The position numbers and the translations under genes were made by a program. Below are positions 9,572 to 27,170 of a stretch of 35,354 bases of DNA, in pieces; position 1 is the stretch's first letter, and every line of letters starts with the position of its first letter. The stretch is from Escherichia coli (GTDB lineage Bacteria; Pseudomonadota; Gammaproteobacteria; Enterobacterales; Enterobacteriaceae), in assembly GCF_003334355.1 (NCBI RefSeq), contig NZ_QOWP01000035.1; one strand, 5' to 3'. The notes beneath the pieces were generated by a model, which saw only the letters and a program-made list of their open reading frames with translations, did no database searches and had not been told where the DNA came from.

Positions 9572-10885
<1,314 letters not shown>

Positions 10886-10954
10886 TTAAATGGGAGATGT
10901 GGCCACAGCCTGCGACCACAGGGATACAGTAACAACATTACCGCAACGATAACA

Positions 10955-12298
10955 TTAACGGTAGCGTTTTATGGGGCTATTTTGATCCTGTTCAGCCAGC
11001 CAGGCGAGCTTTTCGCCAATCTTGCCTTCAAGGCCCCTGTTTGTCGGGAAATAATAGCGTGTTTGTGCTATTTCCGGCGGGAAGTAAACCTCACCGGCAG
11101 CATAAGCGTTTGCTTCATCATGAGCGTAACGATATTCCTGCCCATAGCCCATTTCCTTCATTAATTTCGTCGGCGCATCACGCAAATGAACCGGTACGTC
11201 ATAATCCGGGCGTTCGCGAGCATCGGCCAGCGCGGCTTTAAACGCAGTGTAGACAGCATTGCTTTTTGGCGCGCAGGCCAGGTAAACAATCGCCTGAGCA
11301 ATGGCGCGTTCACCTTCCGCCGGGCCAACGCGAGTAAAGCAATCCCAGGCCGCAATTGCCACCTGCATCGCCCGTGGATCGGCATTACCGACGTCTTCAG
11401 ACGCAATCGCCAGACAGCGACGCGCGACATATAACGGATCGCCACCAGCGGTAATAATTCGCGCATACCAGTACAGCGCCGCATCGGGTGCGCTACCACG
11501 TACCGACTTATGCAGTGCGGAAATCAGATCGTAAAAGCGATCGCCTTTGTTATCAAAGCGGGCGCTACGTTCACCGGCGATTTCGGTCAGTAATTCAGGC
11601 TTCAGGACCCGCTTACCGCTATCATCGACTTCGGCCATATCCGCCATCATTTCCAGCGTATTTAACGCCCGGCGCGCGTCGCCATTCACCAGTTCAGCAA
11701 TGGCGCGTCGTGTTTCATCTGGCAGAACAATATCCTGACCACCATAGCCACGGGTTTTGTCTTCCATCGCCTGAGTTAGTACTTGCTCAATATCCTCTGT
11801 ACTCAGGGATTTCAACAGATAGACACGGGCACGGGAAAGCAGTGCCGAATTAAGCTCAAACGACGGGTTTTCAGTGGTTGCGCCAATAAAAGTGATGGTG
11901 CCGTCTTCAATATGTGGCAGAAATGCATCCTGCTGGCTTTTGTTGAAACGGTGAACTTCGTCAACAAAAAGAATAGTGCGGCGACCTGCATTGCGGTTTT
12001 GCCGGGCGCGCTCGATCGCCTCGCGAATCTCTTTCACGCCAGAGGTGACGGCAGAAATACGTTCCACATCAGCGTTCGCATAGCGGGCAATCACTTCAGC
12101 GAGGGTTGTTTTGCCGGTACCCGGTGGCCCCCAGAGGATCATCGAATGCAAATGCCCGGCTTCGATAGCGCGCGGCAGCGGCTTCCCCGCAGCCAGCAAA
12201 TGTTGCTGGCCGATATACTGTGCTAAATTTTCTGGCCGCATACGCGCGGCCAGAGGTTGAAAAGTATTATCCGAAAAATCGAGCGACAGATTGCTCAC
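10955..12298 (-). CDS. rarA: Replication-associated recombination protein A (AAA+ ATPase), 447 aa
   Basis: ORF track; Walker [12 protein letters not shown]; start codon is GTG (plus-strand cac at 12296-12298); 10 bp downstream of the lolA stop. Confidence 0.9.
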
Positions 12299-12308
12299 TC
12301 AGGTGCCT

Positions 12309-12920
12309 CTACTTACGTTGATCATCTACCGTGACGCCTTGCGGCGGGGTGAAGGTAAATTTCGCTGCATCCACAGCCCCATTTTGCTGGGATTTCAGTT
12401 GATAACTGCTGCGCTGATCGTCCTGCTCCACCGCGCTAAACTGATGGATTGTGCCATCACGTCCCACGTTAATGGTGAACTGCTTCAGATTGCCATTGCT
12501 GGCTTTCGGCGTCAGGACAAAGTCATCGCCATTCTGTTTGATATTGTACTGCTGCCAGTCGCTGGACTGGTTGCGGGCAATCAGCATAAACGGCGTATTA
12601 CCGGTGGCATCTTTCAGCCAGGTTGCCGTAGCTTGCTCAACGAACGGGTTATAGAACCACAGTGTTTTACCGTCAGAAACCAGAATGCTTTCATCAGGTT
12701 GTGTCATATGCCAGTTGAATAAGTTTGGACGTTTCACCCACAGATCGCCCTGACCTTCCTGCACCGCCGCGCCGCTACCATCAGTCACTTTTTGTGTGAA
12801 GCTGGCGTGGAAGCTGCTGACTTTATCCAGGCGGCTTTTCAGATCGCTTGCGGCATCAGCCCAAACGCTGCTTGCTACTAAGCTTGAGAGTAATGCACAG
12901 GTGATGGCAATTTTTTTCAT
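12309..12920 (-). CDS. lolA: Outer-membrane lipoprotein carrier protein, 203 aa
   Basis: ORF track 12309..12923 trimmed to the second ATG (12920), which has better SD spacing; signal peptide [21 protein letters not shown]. Confidence 0.9.
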
Positions 12921-12941
12921 CATTATTCCTCAAATTACGTC

Positions 12942-12957
12942 ACTCCCGATCGGGAGT
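12942..12957. promoter_or_regulatory. Perfect 16-bp palindrome ACTCCCGATCGGGAGT upstream of lolA
   Basis: Perfectly self-complementary 16-mer with a central GATC, 22 bp upstream of the lolA start, immediately 5' of the SD; candidate operator or 5'-UTR hairpin. Confidence 0.35.
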
Positions 12958-13031
12958 TCCCTCTACTCTCTATTCCAGGCTAATAATCAGCTTGAGGAAA
13001 GAAGAAAATACTGAATTTTCAGTTGATAGAG

Positions 13032-13066
13032 TGCCGGATGCGACGCTACCGCGCCTTATCCGGCAA
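13032..13066. repeat. REP (repetitive extragenic palindromic) element
   Basis: tgccggatgcgacgctaccgcgccttatccggcaat matches the E. coli REP consensus (GCCGGATGCG...CGCCTTATCCGGC); between the ftsK stop and lolA promoter. Confidence 0.7.
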
Positions 13067-13074
13067 TGCATTAA

Positions 13075-16000
13075 TTAGTCAAACGGCGGTGGGGCCAGCA
13101 CTTCACGATTACCGTTGTGCCCCTGTTCGCTGACAATCCCCTGCGCTTCCATCTGTTCGATAATACGCGCTGCACGGTTATAACCAATGCGGAACTGACG
13201 CTGTACGCCAGAAATTGACGCTTTGCGTTTTTCAGTGACAAACTGCACCGCCTGATCGAACAACGGATCCAGTTCTTCAGCGCCATCGAAACCACCCGCA
13301 CCACCTTCGCTTTCGCTGTCGGAGGTGATGCCATCAACATACTGTGGGCGACCACGCGCTTTCCAGTCCTGCACCACGGCATGAACTTCCTGATCGCGAA
13401 CAAAAGCACCATGGACACGTACCGGCAACGTGGAGTTCGGCCCAGAGTAGAGCATATCCCCCATACCCAGCAGTGATTCCGCGCCAGCCTGATCAAGAAT
13501 GGTACGTGAGTCAATCTTACTGGATACGGTAAAGGCGATACGGGTCGGAATATTCGCTTTAATCAGACCAGTAATAACATCAACCGATGGACGCTGAGTT
13601 GCCAGTACGAGGTGGATACCCGCGGCACGGGCTTTTTGCGCCAGACGTGCTATCAGCTCTTCCACTTTTTTACCTACCGTCATCATCAGGTCGGCAAATT
13701 CGTCAACCAACACCACAATGTATGGTTCTTTTTTCAGCACCGGATGCTGGGCATCCATACTGTCACCCGGCTTCCAGTACGGGTCTGGAATCGGACGCAT
13801 CATGCGATCGGCTTCAGCAATTTTTTCGTTATAACCCGCCAGATTACGCACACCCAGCGCAGACATCAGTTTATACCGACGCTCCATCTCGTTAACACAC
13901 CAGCGCAGCGCGTTGGCGGCATCTTTCATATCAGTAACGACTTCCGTTAACAGGTGCGGAATGCCTTCATACACCGAAAGCTCCAGCATTTTCGGGTCGA
14001 TCATGATGAAACGCACATCTTCTGGCTGTGCTTTATAAAGCATGCTCAGGATCATCGCGTTCACACCGACAGATTTACCGGAACCGGTAGTCCCCGCAAC
14101 CAACAAGTGCGGCATTTTCGCCAGATCGGCAACCACCGGCTCACCGGCGATATCTTTACCCAGCACCACGGTTAATGGCGACGGATTATCGCGGAATTTG
14201 GCGTTATCCAAAACTTCGCGCAGATAAACGGTTTGTCGTTTTTTATTTGGTAACTCCAGACCTACATAGGGTTTGCCAGGAATAACTTCAACGACACGCA
14301 CCGCCACCGTCGAAAGTGAACGGGCAAGGTCCCGTGACAAGTTAGAAATGCGCGCCGCTTTTACGCCAGGAGCCAGGTTAAGTTCAAAGCGAGTGATAAC
14401 CGGCCCCGGAGAGTAATTGACGACATCGGCTTTAATACGGAAATCAGCCAGACGCGCTTCCACCAGACGAGCCATTTGTTCAAGCGCAAAGGTATCTACC
14501 GGCTCCACTTCGCTCGGCGGCGGTGTCAGCAAATCCAGAGAAGGCAGCGGCGTCGTCGGTTTATGCAACGGACGGCTGTCGCCATTACGCATCAACAGCG
14601 GATGAAGCAGGGTATCCTGCGGTTGTGGCGCAACTGGCTGTTGTGGCTGCTGATACTGCTGCTGCGGCGCAACCGGTTGTTGCGGCTGCTGATATTGCTG
14701 CTGTGGCGCAACCGGTTGTTGCGGCTGCTGATATTGTGGCTGCGGCGCAACCGGCTGTTGTGGCTGCTGATACTGCGGCTGCGGCGGAACTGGTTGTTGC
14801 GGCTGCTGATATTGCTGCTGCGGTGCAACCGGTTGTTGCGGCTGCTGTACAGGTTCAACAATTGGCGTAAACAACGGTTCGTGTGGACCATCATCCAGCA
14901 ACGCTTTCATTGGCGAAAATTCAAAATCATCCAGCGAGAACGGATTCGCCCCAGCCGGTTGTTCGCCGGAATAACGTTGTTGTTGAGTTTGCGCAAACTG
15001 ACGAGCCAGTTCAGCCTCTGCCGCAGCATCTGCATCTTCTGCGTTTACGGGCACATCATGTTGATACTGTTCGCCATAGCGTTGCTGCTGTGTCTGGGCG
15101 AACTGACGTGCCAGTTCATCCTGCTGCATCGCATCGATTTCATCATCGTTGTACTGATCGCCAGAATCGTACTGATTGCGCTGGGCTTCACGGGCTTTTT
15201 CTTCCGCCGCACGCTGTGAGGGCAGCTTAATACCGTAAGACGCCAGTTCACGACGAGTTGGCACGCGGATACGTTTCGGTCGTGGCAACTGCGGACCAAT
15301 CCCCTCTTTGACCTGAGGACGCGGTCCACCGCTATTTGCCAGACTGAAGACTGGCGCGGCAACGGTTGCGGCAGCCCCCGTCGCCAGTGTCGCTTTTTTC
15401 ACGCCAGATGCCAGCGGGGAAACAGCGGCAGCGGCTTCTACTGGAGGTACTGCTGCAACAGAAGGTGCTTTCAGCGAAGATTTGATCGGTTCTGGTTCTT
15501 TAACCGGTTCTGGAATCGGTTGATACCAGGCCGCAAGTTGTTCACGTTCACGGGCTCGCTTCTCTTCAACTTCTTCAAAGTAGTAAAGCGGCGGACGCGC
15601 GGGTTTTGTCTCTTCTACAACGGGTTCAGGCTCCACAACAGGCTGCTGTTCAACGGGTTGCGGCTGTTGGTACAACGGCTCCTGAGCGGCTGGCTGCTGA
15701 TAAGTTTGCTCAGTCTGGTATGTAGACTGTGGAGCAAAAGTGGATTGCTGCTCTTCGGCTTGCCAGGCGTTACCTGCCACCGGTTGTTCTGGCGCAGGGG
15801 CATAATACGGCTGTTGCGCAGGTTGTTCAGCTGCAGGTGCATAATACGGCTGCTGCGGCTGTACTGGTTGTTGCAGCGGCTCATTATATTGCACTGCAGG
15901 CTGCGCATATTGTGACTGCTGTGGGTAACCTTCCGGTGCAGGAGCAATAACCGGCTCTCCCGTTTGTGGACCCGGTACAGGCTGCCAGGCTACTGTAGGT

Positions 16001-17064
16001 TGCGCAGGTGGAACATCAACAGAGGCAACAGGCGGCGTCTGAGTCACAGGTTCAACCGGCGCAGCCCAGCTTTGTGTCGCCGTGGTAGCAGCAGCTGCTA
16101 CAGCGACAGGTTCGGTAATTGGCGCACCGTTTAATAATGGATCGTATTCGTCATATTCTGGCTGCGTTGCACGATTGCCCGAAAATAGGACGTCGTCCGG
16201 GTCGGCAGCCACACCGCGTGCAGTGTAGGTAATCTCTTCGTCATCATCCATCCGCTTACCGGAGAACAACGCAGCGTCTGTTTGCCGCCCCATCGGATTA
16301 ATGAATTTTTCCGCCAACCGTTTACGACGCGCTAGCGCGCCGCGAAGAATACGGGCACGGCGTGATTCATGCTGTTTGCCGTGATTTTCATCTTCATACT
16401 CTTCGTCGTCTTCATACTCATCTTCATCGACCCAGGTATCATCGCGACGGGTACGATTACTGGCGAAGGTGAGAATGTTTAAAATCCAGCCGCCGAGTTT
16501 TTCAGCAATGGTCACCCATGACCAACCGGTGAACAACGTCAGGCCCGCTGCCCAAACGCAGAGCAGCGCAATAGTTCCCCCGCTACTGTGTAGCAGTGGT
16601 TGTAGCGTAGTGCTTAGTAAGCTGCCAATGACGCCACCGGAGGCAAAATACCAGATATCGTCAGCGTTGATTGCCGCCAGACCACAGGAGGTAAGGATGA
16701 GCGCCAAAACGCCAATGATGCGTAGCGAAACGGCAAAATAATCAATGTATTCGTCGCTGGACTGATGACGCCAGGCAAACCAACAACCGCCGACAATAAT
16801 GACGGGAATGGTGTAAGCCATCACGCCAAAAATAAAGAACAGCGTATCTGCCAACCACGCACCGGGCATCCCACCTAAATTATGGATAGGTTCATGCCAG
16901 GCCGTTTGCGACCAGCTGGGGTCCGAAGGGTTAAAGCTTAGTAAGGCAGCCATCAACCAGACGGCAAACAGGACAATAAGGATCAGCAACGCCTCCAGAA
17001 GGCGGCGGCCGCTACTTAACTTTGTCAATGTGACTTCTTTGTCTTCAGTGTATTCCTGGCTCAA
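13075..17064 (-). CDS. ftsK: DNA translocase FtsK, 1329 aa
   Basis: ORF track; N-terminal membrane domain, long Pro/Gln-rich linker, C-terminal motor with Walker A GTTGSGKS; start codon TTG (plus caa at 17062-17064) with GGAGA SD. Confidence 0.95.
14617..14847 (-). repeat. In-frame 39-bp tandem repeat (about 5.5 copies) in the ftsK linker
   Basis: Plus-strand unit ggcgcaaccggttgttgcggctgctgatattgctgctgt repeats with few substitutions (copies starting 14627, 14666, 14705, 14744, 14783); encodes [10 protein letters not shown](P/Q)QY on the minus strand. Confidence 0.9.
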
Positions 17065-17140
17065 GAAAGGCTCTCCAGGTTACAGGCTTTTCCTGCCCGA
17101 TGCTAAAACGGACAACAGTACCAGGTTACCCCAGTACTGT

Positions 17141-17160
17141 TGCTGTATGGATTAACAGGA
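17141..17160 (-). promoter_or_regulatory. LexA (SOS) box of the ftsK dinH promoter
   Basis: Plus strand tgCTGTatggattaACAGga = CTGT-N8-ACAG; minus strand reads TCCTGTTAATCCATACAGCA; about 80 bp upstream of the ftsK start in the lrp-ftsK intergenic region. Confidence 0.75.
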
Positions 17161-17198
17161 GTGTAATCAAAATACGCCGATTTTGCACCTGTTCCGTG

Positions 17199-17693
17199 TT
17201 AGCGCGTCTTAATAACCAGACGATTACTCTGCTTGACTTCTTCCATAACAACGTATGTCCGTGTGTCATTGACGCCAGGCAGACGCAGCAGGGTTTCCCC
17301 CAGCAACTTACGGTAGGCTGACATATCCGGCACGCGTGTTTTCAACAGGTAGTCGAAATCACCGGATACTAAATGACACTCCTGAATTTCTTCAAGTTTT
17401 TGTACAGCGGTATTGAATTGTTCAAACACATCCGGTGCGCCACGATTCAGAGTAATCTCAACGAATACCAGAAGTGATGCATCCAGATAATGGGGGTTAA
17501 GCAGCGCCGTATAGCCCTGAATAAACCCTTGTCTTTCCAGCCGACGCACACGCTCAAGGCACGGCGTTGGGGAAAGTCCCACACGTTTAGAAAGCTCGAC
17601 GTTAGAAATACGCCCATCCTTTTGCAACTCATTAAGAATGTTACGATCGATACGGTCGAGATCTTTGCCAGGGCGCTTCTTGCTATCTACCAT
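17199..17693 (-). CDS. lrp: Leucine-responsive regulatory protein, 164 aa
   Basis: ORF track 17199..17747 trimmed to ATG at 17693 (MVDSKKRPGKDLDRIDRNIL); AsnC/Lrp HTH and RAM domain. Confidence 0.95.
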   Translation of the reverse strand: MVDSKKRPGKDLDRIDRNILNELQKDGRISNVELSKRVGLSPTPCLERVRRLERQGFIQGYTALLNPHYLDASLLVFVEITLNRGAPDVFEQFNTAVQKLEEIQECHLVSGDFDYLLKTRVPDMSAYRKLLGETLLRLPGVNDTRTYVVMEEVKQSNRLVIKTR

Positions 17694-24863: not shown

Positions 24864-27140
24864 TTAATGCGCTGCTTCCGCCTTGTGCTTTTGTGCACTC
24901 TGGAATCCGTAAGTCAGCTCATTTTTCGCTTTATCCAGTGCGACGGTGACCTGACCGCCGTCCACCAGCGAACCAAACAGCAGTTCGTTGGCGAGCGGTT
25001 TTTTCAGGTTGTCCTGGATGACACGCGCCATCGGACGAGCGCCCATTGCCCGGTCGTAACCTTTCTCGGCCAGCCAGTTACGCGCTTCCTGGCTCACTTC
25101 CAGAGAAACACCTTTCTGATCCAGCTGAACCTGCAACTCGACGATGAATTTATCCACCACCTGATGGATCACGTCGGTTGACAGATGATCAAACCAGATA
25201 ATGTTGTCGAGACGGTTACGGAATTCCGGTGTAAAGATCTTCTTGATCTCTTCCATCGCATCGGTGCTGTTATCCTGGTGGATAAGACCAATGGATTTGC
25301 GCTCAGTTTCCCGTACCCCGGCGTTGGTGGTCATCACCAGCACCACGTTACGGAAGTCTGCTTTGCGTCCGTTGTTATCGGTCAGCGTACCGTTATCCAT
25401 CACCTGCAACAGAATATTGAACACGTCCGGGTGCGCTTTCTCGATTTCGTCCAGCAGCAGCACCGCATGTGGATGCTTGATGACCGCATCAGTCAGCAAA
25501 CCGCCCTGATCAAAACCAACGTATCCCGGAGGCGCACCAATAAGACGGCTGACGGTATGGCGTTCCATATACTCGGACATATCAAAGCGCAGAAGCTCAA
25601 TGCCCAAAGCTTTCGAAAGCTGTACCGTCACCTCTGTTTTCCCGACCCCGGTAGGGCCGGCAAACAGGAACGAACCAACCGGTTTATGTTCGTGACCTAA
25701 ACCTGCACGCGCCATCTTAATGGCTTCAGTCAGCGCCTCAATGGCTTTATCCTGACCGAAGACCAGCATTTTCAAGCGATCGCCGAGGTTTTTCAGGGTA
25801 TCACGATCACTCTGAGAAACACTCTTCTCTGGAATGCGTGCAATACGGGCCACCACGGACTCAATATCCGCCACATTAACGGTTTTCTTGCGTTTGCTTA
25901 CCGGCATCAGGCGTGCGCGAGCGCCCGCTTCGTCGATAACATCAATGGCTTTATCCGGCAGATGACGATCGTTAATGTATTTCACCGCCAGCTCTACCGC
26001 CGCACGCACCGCTTTTGCGGTATAACGCACGTCGTGGTGCGCTTCATACTTCGGTTTCAGGCCATTGATGATTTGAACAGTTTCTTCGATCGACGGTTCA
26101 GTAATATCAATTTTCTGGAAGCGACGCGCCAGAGCACGGTCTTTCTCGAAAATGTTGCTGAACTCCTGATAGGTTGTCGAACCAATTACACGAATTTTAC
26201 CGCTGGAGAGCAACGGTTTGATTAGGTTAGCCGCATCGACCTGACCACCAGACGCTGCACCCGCACCGATAATGGTGTGGATCTCATCAATAAACAGGAT
26301 GCTGTTAGTGTCCTGCTCCAGCTGCTTGAGCAACGCTTTAAAACGTTTTTCAAAGTCGCCGCGATATTTTGTGCCCGCTAACAGAGAACCGATATCGAGA
26401 GAGTAAATCGTACAGTCAGCCATCACTTCCGGCACATCGCCCTGAACAATTCGCCAGGCAAGACCTTCCGCAATCGCGGTTTTACCGACACCAGATTCCC
26501 CCACCAGCAGCGGGTTGTTTTTACGGCGACGGCAGAGAACCTGAATAGCACGCTCCAGCTCCTTCTCACGACCAATCAGTGGGTCGATTCCGCCCACGCG
26601 CGCAAGCTGATTCAGGTTCGTCGTGAAATTCTCCATACGTTCCTCCCCACCAGCTTGTTCTTCGCTGTTTGGCTGGCTGCCAGGATCAGAAGACTGTGTC
26701 GGCTCGTCTTTACGCGTGCCATGAGAGATAAAGTTCACCACATCGAGACGGCTGACTTCATGTTTACGCAACAGATATGCCGCCTGCGACTCCTGTTCGC
26801 TAAAGATAGCGACCAGAACGTTTGCACCGGTAACCTCATTGCGACCGGAGGACTGGACATGGAAGACCGCACGTTGCAGTACACGCTGAAAACTCAGCGT
26901 CGGCTGTGTGTCGCGCTCCTCTTCACTGGCAGGCAGAACGGGTGTGGTTTGTTCAATAAAGGCTTCCAGTTCCTGACGGAGCGCAACCAAATCCACAGAA
27001 CACGCTTCCAGCGCCTCCCGGGCAGATGGGTTACTGAGCAGCGCCAGTAACAAGTGCTCGACGGTCATAAACTCATGACGGTGCTCGCGCGCTCTGGCGA
27101 AAGCCATATTTAAACTGAGTTCCAGTTCTTGATTGAGCAT
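24864..27140 (-). CDS. clpA: ATP-dependent Clp protease ATP-binding subunit ClpA, 758 aa
   Basis: ORF track 24864..27155 (TTG-initiated) trimmed to ATG at 27140 ([19 protein letters not shown]); two AAA+ modules (GESGVGKT and GPTGVGKT). Confidence 0.95.
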
Positions 27141-27170
27141 AGGCACCTCCCCCAATTTTTATGCCTGCAT

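Follow-up and report, generated by a model that had tools for sequence, protein, structure and literature searches.

A weak start codon that limits translation is classically exemplified by rpsT, the gene of ribosomal protein S20, where experiments have linked it to translational autoregulation. In infC, the gene of initiation factor IF3, the weak start acts as a throttle through the discrimination exerted by IF3, and a feedback loop has been demonstrated. The near-cognate codons GUG and UUG are read by fMet-tRNA with one mismatch, and IF3 discriminates against both. For ftsK we know of nothing equivalent to the autoregulation of rpsT, and no feedback acting on the start codons of ftsK or rarA is known to us.

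The ftsK gene shares with rpsT an annotated UUG start, which in the case of rpsT is confirmed by Ribo-RET, by INRI-seq and by N-terminal peptides (TRAINSPOTTER Table S1, PMC13245402). The confirmed start of infC is a non-canonical AUU, a much weaker codon (1–2% of AUG), whereas ftsK and rarA use the common near-cognates UUG and GUG, which reached 10–100% of AUG in reporters (Hecht et al.). In its layout ftsK is similar to cdsA, which has an annotated TTG and a downstream Met37; the first in-frame ATG of ftsK likewise lies about 37 codons on, and such a layout poses the question as to which start is used. cdsA differs in that it was reported with multiple initiation codons, according to the abstract of that study (PMC11448367), whereas no alternative start was found for ftsK in the INRI-seq tables searched.

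Here we describe the start codons of ftsK and rarA in a stretch of 35,354 nucleotides (referred to as the window) originating from the Escherichia coli chromosome between ycaK and aqpZ (RefSeq assembly GCF_003334355.1, contig NZ_QOWP01000035.1).

Start codons of ftsK and rarA

The annotation of the minus strand around ftsK comprises serS, rarA, lolA, ftsK and lrp. The identity with E. coli ATCC 8739 was 100% over positions 10900–17300, and every one of the 5,426 complete E. coli genomes gave a match to this segment. The features concerned are listed below, with coordinates in the window and with relative positions counted from the respective start codon.

13075–17064, minus strand: ftsK CDS, 1329 aa, DNA translocase FtsK (ORF and RefSeq annotation)
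17062–17064, minus strand: ftsK start codon TTG (UUG) (sequence, RefSeq CDS start, Ribo-RET peak at the K-12 equivalent 933224)
17071–17076, minus strand: ftsK Shine-Dalgarno (SD) sequence GGAGAG, within the invariant CCTGGAGAG (0 parsimony steps at -14 to -9, 70 taxa)
17080–17082, minus strand: in-frame TAA, six codons 5' of the ftsK TTG (sequence)
17031–17080, minus strand: conserved ftsK translation-initiation region, -16 to +33 relative to the TTG (parsimony steps)
10955–12298, minus strand: rarA CDS, 447 aa, replication-associated recombination protein A
12296–12298, minus strand: rarA start codon GTG (GUG) (RefSeq CDS start, Ribo-RET and INRI-seq peaks, N-terminal peptide)
12306–12310, minus strand: rarA SD sequence AGAGG, overlapping the lolA stop TAG at 12309–12311 (1–2 parsimony steps at -10 to -8)
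12299–12301, minus strand: in-frame TGA abutting the rarA GTG (sequence)
12309–12920, minus strand: lolA CDS, its stop 10 nt 5' of the rarA GTG

An earlier note, made from the sequence of the window, had assigned a TTG start to the 1329 aa FtsK frame and a GTG start to the 447 aa RarA frame, and had placed a GGAGA SD sequence 7 nt upstream of the former. Both codons were read on the minus strand as described, TTG at 17064–17062 and GTG at 12298–12296, both coincided with the RefSeq CDS starts, and the SD sequence was found as GGAGAG at 17076–17071. The minus strand reads ...ctg TAA cct GGA GAG cct ttc TTG agc cag gaa tac act... at the start of ftsK and ...cgt aag TAG AGG cac c TGA GTG agc aat ctg... 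at that of rarA. The spacer before the TTG amounts to 7 nt (gcctttc) if counted after GGAGA and to 6–8 nt for GGAG(AG), and the (A)GAGG of rarA is separated from the GTG by 7 nt.

Between the in-frame stop and the NTG neither gene has another codon capable of initiation, and in ftsK no NTG occurs between the upstream TAA and the TTG. As the in-frame stops 5' of the two codons make upstream starts impossible in E. coli, an upstream extension of either reading frame was ruled out for this species. In Salmonella 29 in-frame codons are open 5' of the ftsK TTG, without conservation of the coding type. RefSeq places the CDS starts at the same codons in ATCC 8739 and in K-12 MG1655. The K-12 genes, ftsK (b0890, 933224..937213) and rarA (b0892, 937994..939337), have the same start codons, SD sequences and lengths (1329 and 447 aa), and their initiation regions are identical to those in the window save for one coding difference, T6I in FtsK.

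The earlier note had named ribosome profiling with initiation inhibitors and N-terminal proteomics as ways to check these starts, and published data already bear out the first for both genes and the second for RarA. INRI-seq is an in vitro ribosome profiling method that employs retapamulin, and Table S2 of the INRI-seq paper gives the INRI-seq and Ribo-RET peaks per annotated start. In this table the in vivo retapamulin (Ribo-RET) data of Meydan et al. 2019 have a peak marked as identified both at the ftsK TTG (933224, value 94.5) and at the rarA GTG (937994, value 57.3) (PMC9825163). By the criteria of the same table only ~18% of the annotated starts have a Ribo-RET peak, so that ftsK and rarA are among the better-supported starts. 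TRAINSPOTTER N-terminomics Table S1 contains a RarA peptide of residues 2–19, which is assigned to the GTG as database start, with Ribo-RET and INRI support (PMC13245402). The table is ordered by locus tag; among the rows listed b0889 is followed by b0892, and none holds an N-terminal peptide of FtsK, which is a membrane protein. Chain A of the RarA crystal structure (PDB 3PVS) aligns with RarA residues 1–447.

If the starts were mis-annotated, translation would begin at the first in-frame ATG codons (FtsK Met38, RarA Met20), with the NTG codons as mere ends of the longest ORFs. An ORF listing indeed gives the longest ORF only, and for ycaM, lrp, trxB and macA the longest ORFs in the window open with GTG or TTG, while the annotated starts are downstream ATGs. 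Gene callers also picked downstream ATGs for ftsK in Plesiomonas and for rarA in Vibrio parahaemolyticus. However, the published Ribo-RET peaks sit at the annotated NTG codons of ftsK and rarA, and SD sequences precede both at the correct spacing. Further, the protein sequence is conserved over FtsK residues 2–37 and RarA residues 2–19, the codons there varying mostly at the third position, and Met38 falls within the first transmembrane helix of the FtsK_4TM domain. For rarA the detected peptide has already refuted mis-annotation. We therefore ruled out the two downstream ATGs on the basis of Ribo-RET, N-terminomics and conservation, and consider mis-annotation extremely improbable. We are confident that the ftsK TTG and the rarA GTG are genuine, already annotated starts, used in ordinary SD-led initiation with fMet-tRNA. 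As such they are not new; they stand in the reference annotation and are covered by published start-site mapping.

Nor is their number in the window unusual. The annotated starts of the 25 CDS checked were 23 ATG, 1 GTG and 1 TTG. Genome-wide, E. coli uses 83% ATG, 14% GTG and 3% TTG (Hecht et al.), from which about 3.5 GTG and 0.75 TTG would be expected among 25 CDS. One TTG and one GTG fit this base rate, and an enrichment of non-ATG starts was ruled out. ftsK and rarA belong to the ordinary class of GUG and UUG starts, which comprises about 17% of E. coli genes.

Some observations concern the strain itself and the recovery of this segment in other genomes. In the window clpA (24864–27155) is an uninterrupted ORF and in ATCC 8739 it is split by an IS1 insertion (locus L001, 32062–35115); the window thus derives from a different, closely related strain. 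Residue 374 of RarA is Asp (hlrDaptk) as compared to Asn (hlrNaptk) in K-12 and PDB 3PVS. In only 2,296 of the 5,426 E. coli genomes did a single aligned place cover 80% or more of the 6.4-kb query, and the median was 3 places per genome. This suggests that the alignments break in ftsK, possibly as a result of length variation in its repetitive linker rich in proline and glutamine. The start regions of ftsK and rarA gave eight matches each on E. coli records labelled as plasmids. These records are probably replicons with a wrong label, or else plasmids that carry large pieces of the chromosome.

Conservation of the two initiation regions

We compared the start regions in a scan with one genome per species, comprising the 80 closest Enterobacteriaceae loci, whose FtsK N-terminal domains were 87–99% identical at the protein level. 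The comparison extended over Enterobacterales and Vibrionaceae. The ftsK start was TTG in 81/81 loci and also in 8 further Enterobacterales loci. The order CCTGGAGAG, 6–7 nt, and then TTG AGC CAG was found in Salmonella, Pantoea, Tatumella, Serratia, Yersinia, Proteus, the L091 locus (GCA_051710585.1) and Plesiomonas, and both the UUG and the SD sequence CCUGGAGAG were invariant across the Enterobacterales sampled. Within E. coli the exact 46-nt context of the TTG was present in 5,402 records, and no variant of it with ATG or GTG was found in the E. coli records (~5,400 genomes with the exact sequence). Outside the order, Photobacterium damselae ftsK has a TTG start after GGAG, and in V. parahaemolyticus ftsK is called at an ATG.

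In two genomes the called start and the homologous codon were at different positions. In a Plesiomonas metagenome-assembled genome (L090) ftsK is called at 2886, a downstream ATG, and the homologous TTG lies 78 nt upstream, after CCTGGAGAG. In V. parahaemolyticus (L088) rarA is called at 10755, also an ATG, and the homologous GTG lies 60 nt (20 codons) upstream and encodes VSNYTLDFS. In both cases the non-ATG codon seems to have led the gene caller to a wrong start.

Changes were counted by parsimony on a neighbour-joining tree of 70 taxa, with a total third-position length of about 14.7 substitutions per site. The ftsK TTG had 0 steps at all three bases. The degenerate third positions of ftsK averaged 13.6 steps over codons 2–200, with only 2.7% of them invariant. 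Close to the start this number dropped to a mean of 2.6 third-position steps in codons 2–11, and from -16 to +13 the sequence was almost invariant, synonymous sites included. No indel was present in the first 200 codons of ftsK and rarA in any of the compared loci.

The same loci and tree gave 0 steps for all seven neighbouring ATG start codons as well. Over positions -20 to -1 the initiation region of lrp had 0 steps, followed by serS with 6, ftsK with 51, lolA with 145 and rarA with 153. As lrp and serS were more conserved among the 70 taxa, an exceptional conservation of the ftsK initiation region was ruled out. With starts just as invariant in the ATG neighbours and with tighter regions in lrp and serS, the invariance of the ftsK TTG is not exceptional in this data set. 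AUG is generally favoured by selection, and switches from UUG or GUG to AUG outnumber the reverse (Belinky et al.). What is notable in ftsK is the direction only, as the UUG was left unreplaced in all Enterobacterales sampled despite the tendency towards AUG.

The invariant neighbouring start codons and the tighter regions of lrp and serS are also what would be expected if weak starts are simply tolerated. The two codons would then be neutral leftovers in genes of low expression, and the conservation around them a general constraint on initiation regions. On the other hand, the first base of the ftsK TTG is free to become A or G and yet had not changed once, as compared to the average of 13.6 steps at degenerate third positions. 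Moreover, the TTG was kept across several Enterobacterales families, including the deep-branching Plesiomonas, contrary to the UUG to AUG tendency. We consider neutral tolerance of both codons possible, if somewhat doubtful.

The start of rarA was less constant, with GTG in 66/74 loci and ATG in 8/74, the latter in the Kosakonia clade. On the 70-taxon tree the first base of the GTG had 2 steps, and the degenerate third positions of rarA averaged 14.9. GTG was found in Salmonella, Serratia and Tatumella, and TTG in P. damselae. The exact rarA start context occurred in 5,271 E. coli records, and an ATG variant of this context was not found in E. coli records. In the Kosakonia-clade genes starting with ATG (e.g. 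L037, L052, L055, L063) codon 4 is ATG instead of CTG (MSNMS...); in Serratia codon 4 is ATG as well and the start is still GTG. The starts of both ftsK and rarA are of long standing, the rarA GUG being retained by most lineages. For rarA the choice between GUG and AUG looks nearly neutral.

The position of rarA directly behind lolA is also kept in related species, with a gap of 10 nt and with AGAGG lying over the lolA TAG. From this arrangement, in which the SD sequence of rarA covers the lolA stop, rarA is probably translated by coupling to, or re-initiation from, lolA. Such coupling would not be obligatory, as the isolated rarA initiation region initiates in vitro.

Sequence elements around the ftsK start

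A further explanation is that the conservation of the ftsK TTG stems not from its strength in initiation but from a different element at the nucleotide level in which it is embedded, for instance a hairpin in the RNA or a site bound by a protein or an sRNA. The near-invariant stretch from -16 to +13 would be consistent with this. Within it CCUGG (-15 to -11) can pair with CCAGG (+5 to +9), enclosing a 15-nt loop with the remainder of the SD sequence and the UUG, and this pairing is present in the predicted centroid fold. Among 18 initiation regions in the window, the ftsK segment from -30 to +15 ranked fourth in degree of structure, with -8.4 kcal/mol. The published profiling, in which ftsK has a peak in vivo and none in vitro, would also fit an element of this kind. 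However, the fold of the 100-nt segment from -60 to +40 was no better than that of shuffled sequences (z = 0.38), and 133/200 shuffles folded at least as well. The hairpin arms are invariant, hence no covariation is possible, and the sole arm variant, the CCAAG of L091, disrupts one of the pairs. Furthermore, the TTG itself lies in the loop of the hairpin, and the neighbouring genes have comparable conservation. We find it unlikely that such an element accounts for the conserved TTG. An unusually stable RNA structure at the ftsK start was ruled out by the same z value, the segment from -30 to +15 being only moderately structured.

Further upstream, between lrp and ftsK and about 80–95 nt upstream of the TTG, we noticed a LexA-box palindrome, TCCTGTTAATCCATACAGCA (CTG-N10-CAG), at 17141–17160 on the minus strand. 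It was the sole match to CTGT-N8-ACAG in the window, and we take this site to be the known dinH SOS promoter. The CTG-N10-CAG palindrome was present in 79/79 related loci. The published SOS motif of ftsK, ACTCCTGTTAATCCATACAGCAACA, matches this palindrome (PMC3009722).

Start codon strength and the synthesis of FtsK and RarA

The earlier note had further suggested that the weak start codons may act as translational throttles. Near-cognate UUG and GUG codons initiate less efficiently than AUG and so would help to hold the synthesis of FtsK and RarA low. In ftsK the persistence of the UUG despite the general tendency towards AUG could mean that a low set-point is under purifying selection, FtsK being a translocase whose excess is toxic. 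Overexpression of the active FtsK translocase stops growth (Crozat et al. 2010). A weak-start throttle is plausible at ftsK, because the TTG persists and an excess of the translocase is toxic. At rarA the case for it is weak. There an ATG is tolerated by the Kosakonia clade, and the in vitro peaks are strong; both argue against a throttle at this gene.

The published initiation peaks in the INRI-seq tables (PMC9825163) were considered in this respect. The rarA INRI-seq peaks of 97–141 are among the strongest of its neighbours there, and rarA, lolA, lrp and serS are detected both in vivo and in vitro. For ftsK the in vitro initiation peak is zero in all five INRI-seq replicates, in which about 70% of the genes have an INRI-seq peak; this would be consistent with a low set-point at ftsK. 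The mismatch between the in vivo and in vitro data for ftsK could be due to a stricter discrimination against UUG in the PURE system, to the shortening of the leader to 30 nt in the construct, or to a factor that is present in vivo and absent in vitro. In the same table the in vivo Ribo-RET value of 94.5 for ftsK exceeds those of its ATG-started neighbours lrp (51), lolA (47) and serS (33). Such a high peak counts against a strong throttle at ftsK, with the reservation that peak height also reflects the mRNA level.

We also asked whether the UUG is actively maintained within the region of about 50 nt from -16 to +33, perhaps together with a hairpin of CCUGG and CCAGG that occludes the SD sequence, so as to set a low, IF3-sensitive ceiling on FtsK. 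We put this forward tentatively and regard it as rather unlikely. If it were true, a change of the ftsK TTG to ATG would overproduce FtsK and cost fitness. Our literature search retrieved no dedicated study of the TTG/UUG start of ftsK, and for ftsK or rarA no expression test of a codon change to AUG or of a response to IF3 or to the gene product.

The importance of the two starts is small, as they were known before and as their frequency in the window equals the genome average. For annotation they matter in that automatic callers appear to shift them to a downstream ATG in certain genomes. The ftsK TTG is a modest, clear-cut case of a weak start codon not giving way to ATG, and its conservation could motivate work on the dosage control of a toxic DNA translocase.
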